Assembly: GCA_964408025.1 (NCBI GenBank)
Contig: CAYOXX010000002.1
Coordinates: 97,711 to 161,710 of the forward strand
Reading direction: 5' to 3'
Source of the DNA: an uncultured Acidobacteriota bacterium
Lineage (GTDB): Bacteria; Acidobacteriota; DATKUA01
DNA: 64,000 nucleotides
Every line of letters starts with the position of its first letter. Position 1 is the first letter of the stretch. Under the pieces are notes generated by a model. It was not told where the DNA came from. It did no database searches and saw only the letters and a program-made list of their open reading frames with translations. The position numbers were made by a program, and so were the translations under genes. Of the stretch, positions 1 through 46,909 are shown in pieces.

Positions 1-516
1 CCGAGCGCTTGGTTGCGGCTGCGTGCGAGAACGGTATGTCGGACGCTGGACGCTCGGAAGAGGCTGGGTACGAGAACGGTACGTCGGGCGCTGAACGCTC
101 GGGCGCGGCTGAGTGCGGGAGCTGGTTGTCGGGCGCTGAACGCTCGTACGAGGCTGTGTGCGAGAAGGCGTCGTCGGGCGCTGGACGCTCGTACGAGGCT
201 GTGTGCGAGAAGGCGTCGTCGGTGGCTGGACGCTCGGACGCGGCTGAGTGCGGGAGTTGGTTGTCGGGCGCTGCGCACTGGAGCGCGAGGAGGAGTTCGA
301 GGGTTGCGAGGCGCGGCTACGGGAGGAAGCTGTGGAACTGGAGGACTGGCGCTGCGAAGACTGCGCCTGTCGGGATCGGTTCGAGTTGCCGGACCGCGAA
401 GAACTGTTCCTGTTGCGCGATTGCCGCGACCTCTCCTGGTCGTCAGCAAACGTGGCGGTTCCAACCAGCATCAGCAAGACACTGAAGACCGCCAGCAACT
501 TGATTACTCTCTTCAC
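1..516 (-). CDS. Secreted low-complexity repeat protein, partial (the 3' end runs off the window). GTG start at 516 with an AGGAGG Shine-Dalgarno. Signal peptide MKRVIKLLAVFSVLLMLVGTATFA, followed by 15-aa repeats of the form R(T/P)SVQRPT(T/Y)xSRTQP
   Basis: Manual reverse-complement translation. It is not in the ORF track because it is incomplete. The plus-strand ORFs 9..485 and 13..585 are its shadows. Confidence 0.5.
   Translation of the reverse strand, partial: MKRVIKLLAVFSVLLMLVGTATFADDQERSRQSRNRNSSSRSGNSNRSRQAQSSQRQSSSSTASSRSRASQPSNSSSRSSAQRPTTNSRTQPRPSVQPPTTPSRTQPRTSVQRPTTPSRTQPRTSVQRPTTSSRTQPRPSVQRPTYRSRTQPLPSVQRPTYRSRTQPQPSAR
35..290. repeat. 45-bp tandem repeat, about 5.5 copies (unit gtcgggcgctgRacgctcgtacgaggctgtgtgcgagaaggcgtc). 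On the minus strand it encodes 15-aa S/T/P/R/Q-rich repeats
   Basis: Direct reading of the sequence; the periodicity is exactly 45 nt and stays in frame with the minus-strand ORF. Confidence 0.7.
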
Positions 517-761: not shown

Positions 762-1493
762 GTGCTGTATGGTGAACGCATGATATCCTTTATACTCGCA
801 GCAGCCGCCTTATTCGTCGCGCCGCCCGGCCCCGACAGCGCTGTCACCTGGGGCCCGACGATTCACCAGATAGTTGTGGTCAAGGCCTCAACTCTGATGC
901 CCCCGTCCCTGCAGCACCAGATTCTGCATCACCGGCGCGAGATCCTGCGCGGCTGCCTCGACGTCCTGAGTGAGAACCTCCAGCCCGATCCGCAGGGCGC
1001 CGACGTGACTACGGCCTACGACGCCGTACTCGTCGAGCTCCGCTCGAGGCCGCAGTTTGAAGAGATCTGCTATGGTCTCGGGCGCCTTAGCGCCCTGGCC
1101 GGGGAATTCGCCTCCCCCTTGAGGGATCTGCCCCCTGGCAGCGACACAACAGCGTTTCGCGACTTCGCGGTAGGGGCGCTCGATACGTTCCCTCTGGTCA
1201 TTACGCACGACGGAGAGGAGCACCTGAGCGAGGGCTCCCTGAGCGCATATTTGCAATACGTCGCCAGGCGCAACAGCCTCAGGCGAGAGCTGATCGCCGG
1301 CATCCTGTGCGAGGAGTCGGATCCTGAAACCTGGCGCGATCAGCGCTCGGCCGCCTACGGCGCCGGGCTCCTCTGCTACAACGACCTGGTGCTCGACACC
1401 GCCCGCCTCTGGCTCTACCTCTGGCAGGAAGCCGGGGGTGAGATTGGCGAGGCGCCCTATTTCCGCATCCCCGTAGCCGGAGCGCAGCAGTGA
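762..1493 (+). CDS. Hypothetical protein. Possible signal peptide if translation starts at the internal MISFILAAAALFVA
   Basis: 243-aa ORF. Its TGA stop overlaps the GTG start of ispH as GTGA, suggesting translational coupling. No family recognised. Confidence 0.4.
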   Translation: MLYGERMISFILAAAALFVAPPGPDSAVTWGPTIHQIVVVKASTLMPPSLQHQILHHRREILRGCLDVLSENLQPDPQGADVTTAYDAVLVELRSRPQFEEICYGLGRLSALAGEFASPLRDLPPGSDTTAFRDFAVGALDTFPLVITHDGEEHLSEGSLSAYLQYVARRNSLRRELIAGILCEESDPETWRDQRSAAYGAGLLCYNDLVLDTARLWLYLWQEAGGEIGEAPYFRIPVAGAQQ

Positions 1494-3217
1494 AAATCAA
1501 GGTCGCCAAGACGGCGGGCTTCTGCTGGGGCGTGAGGCGGGCCATCGACCGCGTCCTCGAGCTGCGCGACAAAACCTCTGACAAGATACAAACCCTCGGC
1601 CCCCTGATCCACAATCCGCAGGCGCTGGAGATGCTCGAGCAGAAAGGGATCGACATCGCCGAAAGCCTCGATGACCTGAGCGGCGGCATGGTGGTCATCC
1701 GCACGCACGGCATCTCGCCCGCCGTGCGCAGCGAGCTGCAACATCGAAACCTAAGTATCTGCGACGGCACATGCCCGCGGGTGGCCCACATCCAGTCGCT
1801 CATCAGGCGCTGCGGACGCGTCGGCAAGCAGGTGGTCATCGCCGGCGACGCTGGCCACGCCGAGGTGGTGGGACTGATGGGCTGCGCCGGCGAAGCGGGC
1901 CACGTGGTCTCGAGCGCCGAGGACGTCGAGACCCTGCCGGAGCTGGACCGCGTAGCGCTGGTGGCGCAGACCACCTTTGGGGAGGCCGAATTCGCGGAAA
2001 TCGTCGCCGCCGTGCGCAAGCGCTTCCCCAGCGCCGAAGTGTTCGACACAATCTGCGACTCGACGCACAACCGGCAACGCGAGGTCCGCGAGCTGGCCGG
2101 GGACTGCGACGTGATAATCGTCATCGGCGGCCGGGGCTCCGCCAACACGCGGCGCCTGGCCGAGCTGGCCGGCTCGCTTGGGGCCCTCACGCGCCTCGTC
2201 GAGAGCGACGACGAGCTGCAGCCGCAAATGTTCGACGGCGCCCGCACGGTCGGCGTCACCGCCGGAGCCTCGACACCGCATTGGATGATCCAGCGGGTAG
2301 TCGAGCGGATCGAGGCGATCGGCAAGAGCCGCAAGAAGCGTTGGCTCGCTGCGGCCTGCCGATTCCTGGTGGCCAGCAACATCTTCGTAGCAGTTGGCGC
2401 CGGCCTGCTCTGCCTGCTGACGGCCGCCCTGCTGGGCATCGAGCCGCGGCTGCAATATGGCCTCATCGCCGGCTGCTACATATTCGCCATGCACCTGCTC
2501 AGCCACTTCGCCGACCCCAACGCCGTCGGTCACAACGAGCCGCTGCGGTTTCGCCTATACAGGAGATACAAGCTTCCGATGGCCGCGGCGGGGTCTATCT
2601 CGGCCGCCGTCGCCATTGGCGTAGCCTTCTCACTCGATCCGCTGGCCGGGATGCTGCTGCTGGTGGCCACCGCGACGGGACTACTCTACAGTGTGCGGGT
2701 GGTGCCGCGCCGCTGGGCCCTGACGCTGCGCTTCCGCCGCCTCAAAGACATCCCCAGCTCCAAAGACCTCTTCGTCGCGATCGCCTGGAGCGCGGTAACG
2801 GTGCTCGTGCCGGCCTTGCACCGCGGCCCACATACGCTCTCCGCCGCGGTCCTCAGCCCCCTCATCGGCGTCTTCGTCCTGGTCTACGCCCGCTCCGTTC
2901 TGTTCGACATGCGCGAGATCCGGGGAGACCGGCTGGTCGGTAAGGAGACGCTACCAACCATCCTGGGTGTCGGCAGGACGCAGCTCTGGCTGGCTTCCGT
3001 CGTCGCCGCGGCCGCCTTGCTCTACCTGGCCGCCAGCCTCTCAGGCCTGCCCTCGCCGGCGAGCCTGATGGTGGTGCCGCTGCTTATCTACATCGGGATC
3101 GCGCAGCTGCTCTTTCACTTCGAGCTGATCGGGATCGGCCTGGCAACCGAGGCGGTCGTCGACGGCAACTTCTACCTCGCCGGCCTGCTCGGCGCGGCCT
3201 GGATGGCGCTAACTTAA
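1490..3217 (+). CDS. ispH: HMBPP reductase IspH/LytB (N-terminal roughly 290 aa) fused to a C-terminal polytopic domain of roughly 285 aa that resembles UbiA-superfamily prenyltransferases
   Basis: IspH Cys motifs GFCWGV, DGTCPRV and ICDSTHNRQ are present. The C-terminal half has multiple TM helices and the motif DMREIRGDRLVGKETLP, which resembles the second Asp-rich motif of UbiA enzymes. The first Asp-rich motif is degenerate. Confidence 0.8.
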   Translation: MKIKVAKTAGFCWGVRRAIDRVLELRDKTSDKIQTLGPLIHNPQALEMLEQKGIDIAESLDDLSGGMVVIRTHGISPAVRSELQHRNLSICDGTCPRVAHIQSLIRRCGRVGKQVVIAGDAGHAEVVGLMGCAGEAGHVVSSAEDVETLPELDRVALVAQTTFGEAEFAEIVAAVRKRFPSAEVFDTICDSTHNRQREVRELAGDCDVIIVIGGRGSANTRRLAELAGSLGALTRLVESDDELQPQMFDGARTVGVTAGASTPHWMIQRVVERIEAIGKSRKKRWLAAACRFLVASNIFVAVGAGLLCLLTAALLGIEPRLQYGLIAGCYIFAMHLLSHFADPNAVGHNEPLRFRLYRRYKLPMAAAGSISAAVAIGVAFSLDPLAGMLLLVATATGLLYSVRVVPRRWALTLRFRRLKDIPSSKDLFVAIAWSAVTVLVPALHRGPHTLSAAVLSPLIGVFVLVYARSVLFDMREIRGDRLVGKETLPTILGVGRTQLWLASVVAAAALLYLAASLSGLPSPASLMVVPLLIYIGIAQLLFHFELIGIGLATEAVVDGNFYLAGLLGAAWMALT

Positions 3218-8619: not shown

Positions 8620-9183
8620 ATGCTCCTACCCGCGACCCGCCTGCGCGCGGGCATGATCATCAAGTTCACCGGCGTGGCCTGCCGCGTAACCGTCGTCCAG
8701 CACGTCACGCCGGGCAAGGGCCACGGCATGGTGCAGGCCAAGATGAAGAACCTCGACACCGGCACCAACATCGAGCACCGTTTCCGCAGCGACGAGAAGT
8801 TCGAGAAGGCCTTTCTGGAGAAGCGACGCATGCAGTACCTATACGCCGGCGACGGCGACCACGTTTTCATGGACCTCGAGTCGTTCGAGCAGACCCACAT
8901 TGACGACGAGGCGATGGGCGACAACCGCTACTACCTCGTCCCCGCGCTAGAAATCAGCATGGAGTACTACGAGAGCAAGCCGGTCGGCCTCGAGCTTCCC
9001 ACCACTGTGGAGCTCGAGATCGCCGAGACCGAGCCGCAGTTGAAGGGGGCGACCGCTTCGGCCTCCTACAAGCCGGCCACGCTCAAGACCGGCCTCGTGG
9101 TGCAGGTGCCCCCCTACCTCGACTCGGGCCAGCGCATCAAGATCGACACCCGCGACGGAACCTACATCGGCAAGGCGGACTGA
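8620..9183 (+). CDS. efp: Elongation factor P
   Basis: 187 aa. The conserved PGKG loop, where EF-P carries its modified Lys/Arg, is present; full-length similarity to EF-P. Confidence 0.9.
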   Translation: MLLPATRLRAGMIIKFTGVACRVTVVQHVTPGKGHGMVQAKMKNLDTGTNIEHRFRSDEKFEKAFLEKRRMQYLYAGDGDHVFMDLESFEQTHIDDEAMGDNRYYLVPALEISMEYYESKPVGLELPTTVELEIAETEPQLKGATASASYKPATLKTGLVVQVPPYLDSGQRIKIDTRDGTYIGKAD

Positions 9184-10910: not shown

Positions 10911-12263
10911 TCACCTCACGAGGGCGAGCGTGACGTCCATCAGGTTCGTCCCCGTTGGTCCGGTTAGGATCAAATCGTCCAGCTGTTCAAAGAAGCGATA
11001 TGAGTCGTTCCGGTCGAGCGCCTCGCGCGCTACGAGCCCCAGATCGCGGGCCCGGGCGACCGTGTCGCCGTCGGCCAGGGCACCCGCCGCGTCTGTGGGA
11101 CCGTCGATGCCGTCGGTCGAGCCGGCCAGGACGAGGCAGTCGGGCAATCCGGCCAGCTCGATGGCCGCCGCCAGCGCCAGCTCGCAGTTGCGGCCGCCGA
11201 GGCCTTCGCCGCGCACCGTCACCGTGGTCTCGCCGCCGGCGATGTGCGCGTAGGGGCGCGCGTTCGCCGTCAGGCTGCTCGACAGATCGCTTGCCCGCCG
11301 AGCCAGGTCGCGGCCCAGCTCTCTGGCCTCGCCCTCGAACGGGTCCAGCTCCGTCATCGTCCAGTAGCCGCGTGCCCTGAGCTCCGACTCCAACGCAGCC
11401 AGCGCGTCGCGGTTGCAGCCGACGACATAATTATCGTATGCGGCCAGCGCCGCATCGCCGAGCTTAGGCGTCTCAGCCATCCGGCCCTGCAGTCCCAGCC
11501 TCAGGTGCTTGGCGACGCTCTGTGGAATCTCCCCCTCCAAGCCGTGCTTGCCGATAACCGACCAGGCGTCGCCGAAGGTGCCGGGATCGGGTACGGTCGG
11601 CCCACTGGCGATGACGGCCGGGTCGTCGCCCGGCACGTCGGAGAGGTAGAGGCCGAGGGCGGCCGCAGGGAAGATCGCCCGCAGCAGCTGCCCGCCCTTG
11701 AGCGCGCTGATGTGCTTGCGCACCGTATTGAGTTCTGAGATCGGCGCGCCGGCCAGCAGCAGCAGCCGCACCGTCTCCCGCTTGTCTTCCAGCGTTATGC
11801 CCTTCGCAGGGAGGGAGAAGATCGCCGAGCCGCCGCCGCTGACCAGGCAAATGACAAGCTCGTTCTCTCCCGCCGCCTTCGCCGTCTCCAGGGCCACCAT
11901 GGCGGCCTCGACGTTCCGGGGGGTCGGCAGCGGATGGGTGCACTCCAACGCCGCGTACTTGTCGGGGAGCGGCCTCGGGAAAGAGTTCGACAGCACCACG
12001 CCGCTCTCGATCAGCCCGCCCATAACGCCCTCGAGCCCCTCGACCATGCCCGCGGCCGCCTTGCCGAAGGCGATGACGCGGATCCGCTCGAACGATCCCA
12101 CCTCGGCGACCCCGCCCATTACTCTCAGCCTCGAGCCTTCCAAGCGCAGCCGCTCCGCGAGCAACCGGCGGGGATCGATCTCTTCCAGCGCCGAACTGTA
12201 GGCGGCCAAGGCGTCAGCGCGCAGATCGCGGTCTCGCTCCACGCTAGCCTCTTCTACCATCAC
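10911..12263 (-). CDS. Glycerate 2-kinase / hydroxypyruvate reductase-like (MOFRL family)
   Basis: Characteristic MOFRL/GckA architecture and motifs (VSGGGSA, STDGIDGPTDAAG). Confidence 0.8.
   Translation of the reverse strand: MMVEEASVERDRDLRADALAAYSSALEEIDPRRLLAERLRLEGSRLRVMGGVAEVGSFERIRVIAFGKAAAGMVEGLEGVMGGLIESGVVLSNSFPRPLPDKYAALECTHPLPTPRNVEAAMVALETAKAAGENELVICLVSGGGSAIFSLPAKGITLEDKRETVRLLLLAGAPISELNTVRKHISALKGGQLLRAIFPAAALGLYLSDVPGDDPAVIASGPTVPDPGTFGDAWSVIGKHGLEGEIPQSVAKHLRLGLQGRMAETPKLGDAALAAYDNYVVGCNRDALAALESELRARGYWTMTELDPFEGEARELGRDLARRASDLSSSLTANARPYAHIAGGETTVTVRGEGLGGRNCELALAAAIELAGLPDCLVLAGSTDGIDGPTDAAGALADGDTVARARDLGLVAREALDRNDSYRFFEQLDDLILTGPTGTNLMDVTLALVR

Positions 12264-46816: not shown

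Positions 46817-46909
<93 letters not shown>

Follow-up and report, generated by a model that had tools for sequence, protein, structure and literature searches.

The stretch of DNA analysed here (the window, 64,000 nucleotides from an uncultured Acidobacteriota bacterium) carries a gene in which IspH, the HMBPP reductase, is joined to a UbiA-fold membrane domain (Table 1). As the initial annotation had proposed, the two halves form one polypeptide encoded by a real single gene, and both PF02401 (301 bits against a cut-off of 24.5) and PF01040 (45.3 bits for the whole protein against a gathering cut-off of 34.2) score above threshold. A sequencing or assembly frameshift that artificially joined two adjacent genes is practically inconceivable and is refuted on three counts: at least three samples gave assemblies that independently encode an identical protein; of 80 genome loci spread over many phyla, 78 have the fusion in frame and free of stops, among them three Desulfobacteraceae/Desulfobacterales loci (L053, L071 and L087); and the top 120 homologs, 38–94% identical to the window protein, are all full length and carry both Pfam domains. 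No second ispH is found within the window, nor within 10 kb on either side of the fusion in 80 genomes.

Table 1. Features of the IspH-UbiA-like locus (positions in the window; residue counts refer to 121 aligned family sequences).
Feature	Position	Strand	Description
Upstream ORF, clade-specific	762..1493	+	243 aa; stop overlaps the start codon of the fusion (GTGA)
IspH-UbiA-like fusion gene, complete	1490..3217	+	575 aa; GTG start, TAA stop; from ORF list and sequence
IspH (HMBPP reductase) domain	1490..2329	+	Residues 1-280; cytoplasmic by prediction; PF02401, TIGR00216
Cys12, first [4Fe-4S] ligand	1523..1525	+	C in 118/121 homologs, the others being gaps
Cys95, second [4Fe-4S] ligand	1772..1774	+	C in 121/121 homologs
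Cys189, third [4Fe-4S] ligand	2054..2056	+	C in 121/121 homologs
Short basic juxtamembrane linker	2315..2359	+	Residues 276-290, AIGKSRKKRWLAAAC; 5 K/R, no acidic residues
UbiA-fold membrane domain	2342..3214	+	Residues 285-575; nine TM helices, N-in; PT_UbiA_5-type by homology
First motif, non-canonical	2501..2548	+	S338-H-F-A-D342-P-N-A-V346-G-H-N349-E-P351-L-R353; canonical form N-D-x-x-D-x-x-x-D-x-x-N-x-P-x-R
Family signature	2741..2764	+	L418-K-D-I-P422-S-S424-K425; cytoplasmic loop 4-5; L114, I117, P120, S120, K120 of 121
Second motif	2906..2956	+	D473-M-R-E476-I-R-G-D480-R-L-V-G484-K-E486-T-L-P489; cytoplasmic loop 6-7
Acidic pair	3149..3163	+	E554-x-x-x-D558; predicted cytoplasmic start of TM9; [DE]xxx[DE] in 120/121

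Judged by its sequence, the N-terminal half is a complete HMBPP reductase that has lost none of its catalytic residues. PF02401 matches residues 3–275 (E=9.3e-90), TIGR00216 scores 283.2 bits against a cut-off of 187.85, and the AF2 model of this half has a pLDDT mostly of 85–97. The three Fe-S cysteines noted on first reading are indeed present as C12, C95 and C189; C95, C189, H41, H73, E125, Q160, T162, S217, N219 and S261 are invariant among 38–121 homologs, and H123 is kept in 120 of 121. The half resembles the standalone bacterial IspH/LytB proteins of E. coli and Aquifex aeolicus, matching the PF02401 and TIGR00216 models over their full length and sharing the same cluster cysteines and His/Glu/Thr/Ser/Asn substrate-binding residues, but the window protein has an added membrane extension of 295 residues, and its IspH is therefore predicted to be membrane-tethered instead of soluble. 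Fusions of IspH to ribosomal protein S1 (NF000907, PRK00087) likewise pair an N-terminal IspH with a C-terminal extension, whereas the window protein lacks S1 repeats; its NF000907 score of 298 bits is below the cut-off of 624 and comes from the IspH part of the model alone (positions 1–283 of 671), and the protein lies outside that family.

The C-terminal half is built as a UbiA fold, with about nine TM helices in two pseudo-symmetric four-helix bundles. An N-in topology, with 24 Lys/Arg on the cytoplasmic side and 2 on the periplasmic side in line with the positive-inside rule, would place IspH and the conserved loops 2–3, 4–5 and 6–7 all in the cytoplasm. The PF01040 match reaches 49.3 bits when the half is searched alone and spans just profile positions 71–230 of 250. 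Similarity to individual UbiA enzymes is distant: the best NCBIfam score for a characterised subfamily (DGGGPS, MenA, ChlG, archaeal PRK13591/PRK12872) is 30.3 bits against cut-offs of 238–353, the MenA model TIGR00751 gives 19.9 bits against 102, the PDB profile match has E=0.014, and identity to the solved structures (ApUbiA 4od4, AfUbiA 4tq3, UBIAD1 8djm, DGGGPS 6m31 and chlorophyll synthase 9sau) is 11–16%. The original description of this half as UbiA-like therefore stands as regards the Pfam match and the fold, but the domain is not a canonical UbiA, with a degenerate motif I and no NCBIfam prenyltransferase model near its cut-off. Between the two halves, the pLDDT of the linker falls to about 71 (AF2), and the pTM is 0.64 for the full-length model and 0.85 when the membrane domain is modelled by itself; the models accordingly predict no fixed docking between the two active sites, and the inter-domain geometry is a prediction of low confidence.

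The first aspartate-rich motif sets this domain apart from the solved UbiA enzymes. Motif I reads S-H-F-A-D-P-N-A-V in the window protein and N-[RH]-x-x-D-x-x-x-[SVA] across the family, not NDxxDxxxD, a register that is confirmed by profile alignment to chlorophyll synthase 9sau. Among 121 sequences, position 338 is Asn in 107, Ser in 7 and Tyr in 7; position 339 is Arg, His or Tyr, with Asp never among the top residues; position 342 is Asp in 96 and Asn in 23; and position 346 is Ser, Val or Ala, with Asp in just 3. Further along the motif, N349 (106), P351 (118) and R353 (Arg in 99, Lys in 16) are largely kept. Two of the three canonical aspartates, at +1 and +8, are missing family-wide, the anammox members have N342 in place of the remaining one, and the clade of the window protein has S338 for the ligand Asn and E476 for a ligand Asp. 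In AfUbiA, Mg2+ is bound by N68, D72, D198 and D202, D76 is too distant to bind, and the diphosphate is bound by R22 and K146 (PMC4106721). The equivalents of the four metal ligands in the window protein, S338, D342, E476 and D480, are all oxygen-donor residues, and across the family these positions read NDDD in 65 of 121 sequences, NNDD in 23, NDQD in 8, SDED in 7, YDDD in 7 and NDED in 6, so that the two direct ligand positions of motif I (0 and +4) are retained as Asn/Ser/Tyr and Asp/Asn. The basic residues R353, K425 and R468 are kept in the window protein, K425 being found in 120 of the 121 sequences.

In the second motif, D473 is kept in 106 of 121 sequences, Asp or Glu at 476 in 110, D480 in 120, G484 in 121, E486 in 120 and P489 in 117, and R468, just upstream of it, occurs in 121 of 121. 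Rao et al. describe two DXXXD repeats in these proteins (PMC4746011). We find the strict DxxxD essentially confined to loop 6–7, as D476xxxD480 in 97 of the 121 sequences. The other acidic pair that is widespread in the family is not the canonical motif I but [DE]554xxx[DE]558 on TM9, which the Pfam UbiA match does not reach. The window protein has ExxxD at both sites; in loop 6–7 this is E476xxxD480, a conservative change, with D473 in addition. Compared with the solved UbiA enzymes, the IspH-fused family thus lacks Asp at +1 and +8 of NDxxDxxxD and adds the LKDIPxSK signature of loop 4–5, the TM9 acidic pair and the IspH fusion itself. Both halves are under purifying selection: in the closest pair, the IspH halves give an omega of 0.23 and the UbiA-like halves one of 0.13, and the 15 substitutions that separate the membrane halves of this pair all lie outside the three loops that carry the motifs.

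The view taken on first reading, that known IspH fusions involve only ribosomal protein S1, was mistaken. In 2015, 47 IspH-UbiA 'Rosetta stone' fusions, 'all in sulfate-reducing bacteria', were published by Rao, O'Dowd, Li, Wang and Oldfield (Chem Sci 2015, PMC4746011), who put the membrane half in the CDD subgroup PT_UbiA_5, proposed that the fusion supplies IPP/DMAPP locally to the prenyltransferase, suggested localisation as a further role, and reported that expression of the full-length protein failed, the only published attempt. The window gene is, on sequence grounds, a member of this described family, with which it shares its architecture (N-terminal IspH, C-terminal nine-TM UbiA-like domain) and a length of about 575–590 aa; the assignment of its membrane half to PT_UbiA_5 rests on homology to the family of PMC4746011. 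Our search of the literature after 2015 on IspH-UbiA or PT_UbiA_5 proteins returned nothing functional, and in a paper on anammox ladderanes IspH occurs solely in the reference list.

The range of the family is far wider than the sulfate reducers. With the LKDIPxSK-type signature as a specific pattern, we retrieved it from 216 species genomes, a lower bound, including those of Nitrospinota, anammox Brocadiales, Zixibacteria, Acidobacteriota, Nitrospirota and Thermodesulfobacteriota, which answers the call for a survey of its distribution. The window protein is 40–45% identical over its full length to members from Thermodesulfobacteriota/Desulfobacterales and falls in a clade of its own at about 60% identity, where the nearest genome with a name is that of an Acidobacteriota MAG (L008). 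With the fusion type published in 2015 and found in hundreds of bacterial species, the window case is an ordinary one. Throughout this range the two halves evolve as a single unit and almost never separate: their divergences co-vary with r=0.955 over 7,260 pairs, and the UbiA-like domain is essentially never unfused. An exhaustive search did return matches of 300–370 aa that might pass for the free domain, but those with a judgeable N-terminus start inside the C-terminal segment of IspH (GVTAGASTPNW...); they are gene calls cut short, with the C-terminus of IspH still attached. The only candidate (P0230) lies on a 1.3-kb contig with a coverage of 2.8, where the 300 bp upstream show no trace of IspH, and is too weak to count.

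Taken together, we think it probable that the window protein, as a member of the described family, combines an HMBPP reductase with a divergent UbiA transferase that is still active, and so tethers the production of IPP/DMAPP beside a membrane consumer. The IspH half would work at the inner membrane face, reducing HMBPP to give IPP and DMAPP, and the membrane half, a transferase from a divergent subgroup of UbiA, would bind Mg2+ and diphosphate and attach a prenyl group to a putative acceptor; the fusion would hold precursor production beside its consumer and would guarantee co-expression of IspH and transferase at 1:1. Reading the membrane half as 'catalytically dead' from its degenerate motif I had seemed natural, and we have softened it because motif I of AfUbiA ligates Mg2+ only at positions 0 and +4 (PMC4106721), which the family largely retains, and because dN/dS points to strong constraint. 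Substrate channelling at the membrane, as initially suggested, goes further than these data. UbiA enzymes generally take prenyl diphosphates from further soluble elongation steps, and with no fixed docking of the two sites predicted, direct tunnelling of product between them is not supported by any result here.

The membrane half could instead be only an anchor or scaffold, its transferase activity lost, that tethers IspH to the membrane, perhaps close to a membrane-associated electron donor or to downstream isoprenoid enzymes. We hold this to be unlikely, even though the family-wide loss of the +1 and +8 aspartates, the S338 and E476 of the window clade, the N342 of the anammox members and the finding that no acceptor-related neighbour is conserved across phyla all point that way, as does the localisation role raised by Rao et al. 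(PMC4746011). A pure anchor needs no invariant polar residues in its cytoplasmic loops, whereas R468 (in every sequence) and D480, G484, E486, K425, S424 and P422 (each in 120–121 of 121) are kept across phyla together with the TM9 acidic pair; the low omega of the closest pair and its substitution-free loops also argue against an anchor, and the lost aspartates are at positions that are not direct Mg2+ ligands in AfUbiA (PMC4106721).

Two further readings keep a ligand-binding role for the domain and change what it does. As a regulatory lipid sensor, it would bind a membrane end-product, a prenyl phosphate or diphosphate, leave it unconverted and modulate the attached IspH, giving feedback on the MEP pathway. 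The putative diphosphate-binding residue set kept despite a degenerate catalytic signature, the obligate fusion with tightly co-varying halves, and a linker short enough to transmit a conformational change are consistent with such a sensor, but it has no precedent in the UbiA literature searched, and it would act through an interface that is modelled with low confidence (pTM 0.64); we regard it as improbable. It is very improbable, in our estimate, that the domain is an active transferase that uses a non-prenyl diphosphate donor or other unusual chemistry and is linked to IspH through a lipid acceptor, not the donor. For a non-prenyl donor there is a precedent in Rv3806c, a phosphoribosyltransferase of the UbiA fold that works with PRPP and decaprenyl phosphate, and a UbiA-type terpene cyclase is another for unusual chemistry.

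As a discovery the locus carries little weight: this kind of fusion has been in the literature since 2015, together with its probable place at the membrane and the idea of local supply (PMC4746011), and databases already annotate both domains on these proteins. What we add is the wider range, the near-absence of the unfused domain, the lack of an operon partner shared across phyla, the non-canonical motif I with oxygen donors kept at the metal-ligand positions, the TM9 pair and the evidence of purifying selection. Even so, at least 216 species-level genomes, among them those of biogeochemically important anammox bacteria, nitrite oxidisers and sulfate reducers, have retained the fusion of IspH to a UbiA-fold domain, and the product of the membrane half, if identified, could reveal a new isoprenoid lipid or cofactor, or a new mode of control over the MEP pathway, in bacteria that are difficult to grow in culture. 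For mutagenesis, the residue map offers as targets the four metal-ligand positions, the residues R468 and K425, the loop with LKDIPxSK and the acidic pair on TM9. One bolder form of the transferase reading, which we rate as a long shot, is that the PT_UbiA_5 domain is an enzyme obligately tethered to IspH, whose metal site was remodelled by loss of the +1 and +8 aspartates of motif I and gain of the TM9 pair, and which takes DMAPP, a C5 product of IspH, or even HMBPP as its direct donor; it would make a C5-(hydroxy)prenylated lipid or cofactor of the membrane that has yet to be described. Such a product would be common to anammox bacteria, Nitrospinota, Thermodesulfobacteriota, Zixibacteria and some Acidobacteriota, and its synthesis would entail a genuine hand-over of substrate from the last MEP enzyme to a membrane transferase.

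The neighbours of the fusion are lineage-specific, and no operon partner is shared across phyla. In Brocadiales, DUF502 lies directly downstream, and folD, GT2, a HemN-like radical SAM gene, efp and polyprenyl synthase lie upstream; in Thermodesulfobacteriota, dus is found upstream and GT2 downstream. A scan for promoters and terminators around the fusion gene gave nothing beyond chance. The ORF that overlaps the start of the fusion in the window has no match in Pfam, NCBIfam or PDB and is not found beside the fusion in other phyla; its N-terminus contains TWGPTIH. We considered it as a relative of zinc phospholipase C or P1 nuclease, which the Pfam, NCBIfam and PDB sequence searches do not support. 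Its orthologs, about 50% identical, abut or overlap the fusion start at three loci (L004, L008 and L009).

The IspH-UbiA fusion in the window is a real and correctly recognised, yet previously described feature, and its protein is a new family member from an Acidobacteriota-like clade. Rao et al. (Chem Sci 2015; PMC4746011) reported 47 such fusions, 'all in sulfate-reducing bacteria', placed the membrane half in the CDD subgroup PT_UbiA_5 with no function assigned there, modelled the UbiA domain with Phyre2 on an ApUbiA template, and noted that fusion-bearing genomes also encode a separate UbiA/MenA. They proposed that the UbiA domain brings IspH to the membrane, giving a UbiA-like enzyme a high local concentration of IPP/DMAPP; their attempt to express the full-length protein failed. 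The initial annotation, which knew IspH fusions only with S1, was therefore wrong on this point, and its channelling idea is the hypothesis already published in 2015. We found no later functional work on IspH-UbiA or PT_UbiA_5 in the post-2015 literature, and the worthwhile question is the one that stood then: what the membrane half makes.

The architecture first read from the sequence was confirmed in all details. GGAG lies 7 nt 5' of the start codon, and the N-terminus MKIKVAKTAGFCWGV is typical for IspH. The IspH half is complete, as annotated, matching Pfam LYTB (PF02401, residues 3-275, E=9.3e-90) and NCBIfam TIGR00216 (ispH; 283 bits, cut-off 187.85), and contains all three expected Fe-S cysteines (C12, C95, C189). 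The C-terminal half gives a significant UbiA match (PF01040, residues 366-537; 45.3 bits for the whole protein and 49.3 for the half alone, gathering score 34.2). This tail, annotated with several transmembrane helices, has nine predicted ones in residues 285-575, on which hydropathy and AlphaFold agree, and the reported D-x3-I-x-G-D-x3-G-K-x-T-L-P motif is found at residues 473-489.

Features of the window
Feature	Position	Strand	Remarks
Tandem repeat	17-273		45-bp unit, 5.7 copies, 81% match; alternative period 135 bp
Unknown-function ORF	762-1493	+	243 aa; stop overlaps fusion start codon (GTGA)
IspH-UbiA-like fusion ORF	1490-3217	+	575 aa; GTG start; from ORF list and sequence
efp	8620-9183		
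DUF4147/MOFRL glycerate kinase-type gene	10911-12263		
Low-GC region	about 16000-48000		GC 0.50-0.58 vs 0.64-0.65 in flanks
tRNA	46821-46907		in low-GC region

In the homolog alignments C95, C189, H41, H73, E125, Q160, T162, S217, N219 and S261 do not vary; 118 of 121 sequences have C12 (the others have gaps) and 120 have H123. They correspond to the cluster ligands and substrate-binding residues established for E. coli IspH. This half is modelled with pLDDT mostly 85-97 and has a dN/dS of 0.23 against the closest relative (L088, 94% identity), and nothing points to an inactive enzyme. A second ispH is absent from the 64-kb window and, in the 80 genomes examined, from the 10 kb on either side of the fusion.

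An artefactual joining of two genes has a negligible probability. The identical 575-aa protein occurs in independent assemblies from at least three samples (SRR3095933, SRR3085585, ERZ25073477), and each of the 120 best database homologs has a length of 567-625 aa and carries PF02401 as well as PF01040. A profile built from just the membrane half, scanned against a single genome for each species, matched 216 genomes; 78 of the 80 loci fetched carry the domain fused in frame to IspH without a stop, which, with the identical ORFs, settles the concern over a frameshift in favour of a genuine fusion. The two remaining matches are no more than about 400 bp from a contig end. A HMMER search of 1.84 billion representatives returned 372 clusters at E<=1e-30, among which the inspected shorter matches with a judgeable N-terminus start within the IspH C-terminal segment (GVTAGASTPNW...), and are therefore truncated gene calls, not unfused domains. 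The sole exception and only candidate unfused PT_UbiA_5-like protein, P0230 (L089 301-1224, 307 aa), lies downstream of 300 bp that contain stops in every frame and nothing left of IspH; its contig of 1.3 kb at coverage 2.8 is too weak a basis for claiming that the domain also exists on its own. Over 7,260 sequence pairs, pairwise identity in one half tracks that in the other (r=0.955), as expected if the halves have evolved together after a single fusion.

The survey of phylogenetic distribution that had been proposed, run over the 216 species genomes, makes the family far wider than the 2015 account: it occurs in Nitrospinota, Brocadiales (Brocadia, Kuenenia, Scalindua), Thermodesulfobacteriota (Desulfobacterales, Syntrophobacterales), Zixibacteria, Nitrospirota-labelled MAGs and Acidobacteriota. 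Two Planctomycetota/Brocadiales MAGs hold two loci each (VGXV01, L030 and L032; JAHFOX01, L038 and L054), which points to paralogs in some genomes related to anammox bacteria, or to mixed bins.

The membrane half is, by sequence, a deep, separate branch of the UbiA superfamily: scores against the characterised NCBIfam models reach 30 bits at most (cut-offs 100-350), and chlorophyll synthase is the sole match of a PDB sequence profile search (E=0.014). The latter alignment sets the register of motif I, in loop 2-3 (LNDFYDRDIDAINEPYR vs the family LN-r-f-a-D-k-e-A-v-r-f-N-e-P-a-R). Over 121 sequences, position 0 is N in 107, +4 is D in 96 and N in 23, and +11 N, +13 P and +15 R are retained; the Asp at +1 is lost family-wide (R/H/Y instead), as is that at +8 (S/V/A instead, D in only 3). 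Motif II, in loop 6-7, is kept in most of the family (D473-x-x-D476-x-x-G-D480-x-x-x-G484-x-E486-T-[IL]-P489), with the conservative change of D476 to E in the window, and follows an invariant R468. In AfUbiA, two Mg2+ are ligated by N68 and D72 (motif I 0, +4) and by D198 and D202 of motif II (PMC4106721); we thus softened a first reading that the motif I changes abolish catalysis. The four equivalent positions read NDDD in 65 of 121 sequences, NNDD in 23 (anammox bacteria), NDQD in 8, SDED in 7 (the window's clade), YDDD in 7 and NDED in 6, so that oxygen-donor side chains are kept at all four in most members.

Two signatures are family-specific: a nearly invariant L-K-D-I-P-x-S-K in loop 4-5, and the acidic pair [DE]554-x-x-x-[DE]558, where TM9 is predicted to begin on the cytoplasmic side (120/121). 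Strict DxxxD is frequent in loop 6-7 alone (97 sequences), and the 'two DXXXD repeats' described in PMC4746011 therefore probably correspond to that of loop 6-7 plus the acidic pair of TM9 rather than to the canonical first motif. In anammox members, N replaces D342 and, at the same time, E-Q replaces K419-D420 (LKDIP to LEQIP), a correlated change that ties loop 2-3 to loop 4-5 and hints at an interaction between these residues.

We favour, with some reserve, a fusion in which an active IspH would be tethered to the membrane by a putative divergent, functional UbiA-fold transferase still binding Mg2+ and diphosphate. The predicted cytoplasmic segments (linker and loops 2-3, 4-5 and 6-7) hold 24 K/R and the periplasmic loops 2, in keeping with the N-in orientation known for UbiA proteins, which would place IspH and the conserved loops on one side of the membrane. 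The membrane half has a dN/dS of 0.13, and its 15 substitutions relative to L088 all lie outside loops 2-3, 4-5 and 6-7, a pattern that fits a ligand-binding or catalytic site and is a misfit with a decaying pseudo-domain or simple hydrophobic anchor. A role as anchor only is unlikely in our estimate; a lipid-sensing regulator is less probable still, and unusual donor chemistry is the least probable of these.

Co-localisation and co-expression of the halves are supported. Their linker is short and basic (AIGKSRKKRW), and the full-length model (pLDDT 87, pTM 0.64), in which pLDDT dips at the junction, predicts no fixed placement of the IspH active site against the UbiA cap. The donors of most UbiA enzymes are C10 or longer and come from separate elongation enzymes. 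Taken together, this does not support literal channelling between the halves.

The window protein falls in a small clade of about 60% identity (P0002-P0007, L004, L008, L009), and its nearest named genome, an Acidobacteriota MAG, is syntenic with the window (the ORF preceding the fusion, two genes of unknown function after it, aspS with 74% identity, parA). The upstream ORF has orthologs, about 50% identical and in the same position, only in L004, L008 and L009; it has no Pfam, NCBIfam or PDB match, and kinship to phospholipase C or P1 nuclease found no support in these searches. Fusion neighbourhoods are lineage-specific, with no partner gene common across phyla. In 32 Brocadiales loci a DUF502 (PF04367) membrane-protein gene lies 3' of the fusion (e.g. 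L006 11779-12468), in most on the same strand at 4-34 bp, in the remaining ones about 2.4-2.5 kb downstream, and at 118 bp in L057; the opposite strand carries, farther upstream, folD, GT2, a HemN-like radical SAM gene, efp and polyprenyl synthase. The efp gene is a few kb from the fusion in the window and in 19 Brocadiales loci, and a MOFRL gene is near the fusion in the window and in at least six Thermodesulfobacteriota/delta-type loci (L005, L021, L043, L048, L052, L053); both may be remnant housekeeping synteny, or chance.

The window's other genes are housekeeping and miscellaneous, with no further isoprenoid gene among them. The tandem repeat at its start yields repetitive ORFs in several frames. 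The low-GC region, which could be a horizontally acquired island, carries an aminotransferase/amidohydrolase/PLP-decarboxylase/Na:alanine symporter block, a Kelch/beta-helix protein, beta-lactamase-family genes and a TonB-dependent-type outer-membrane protein.
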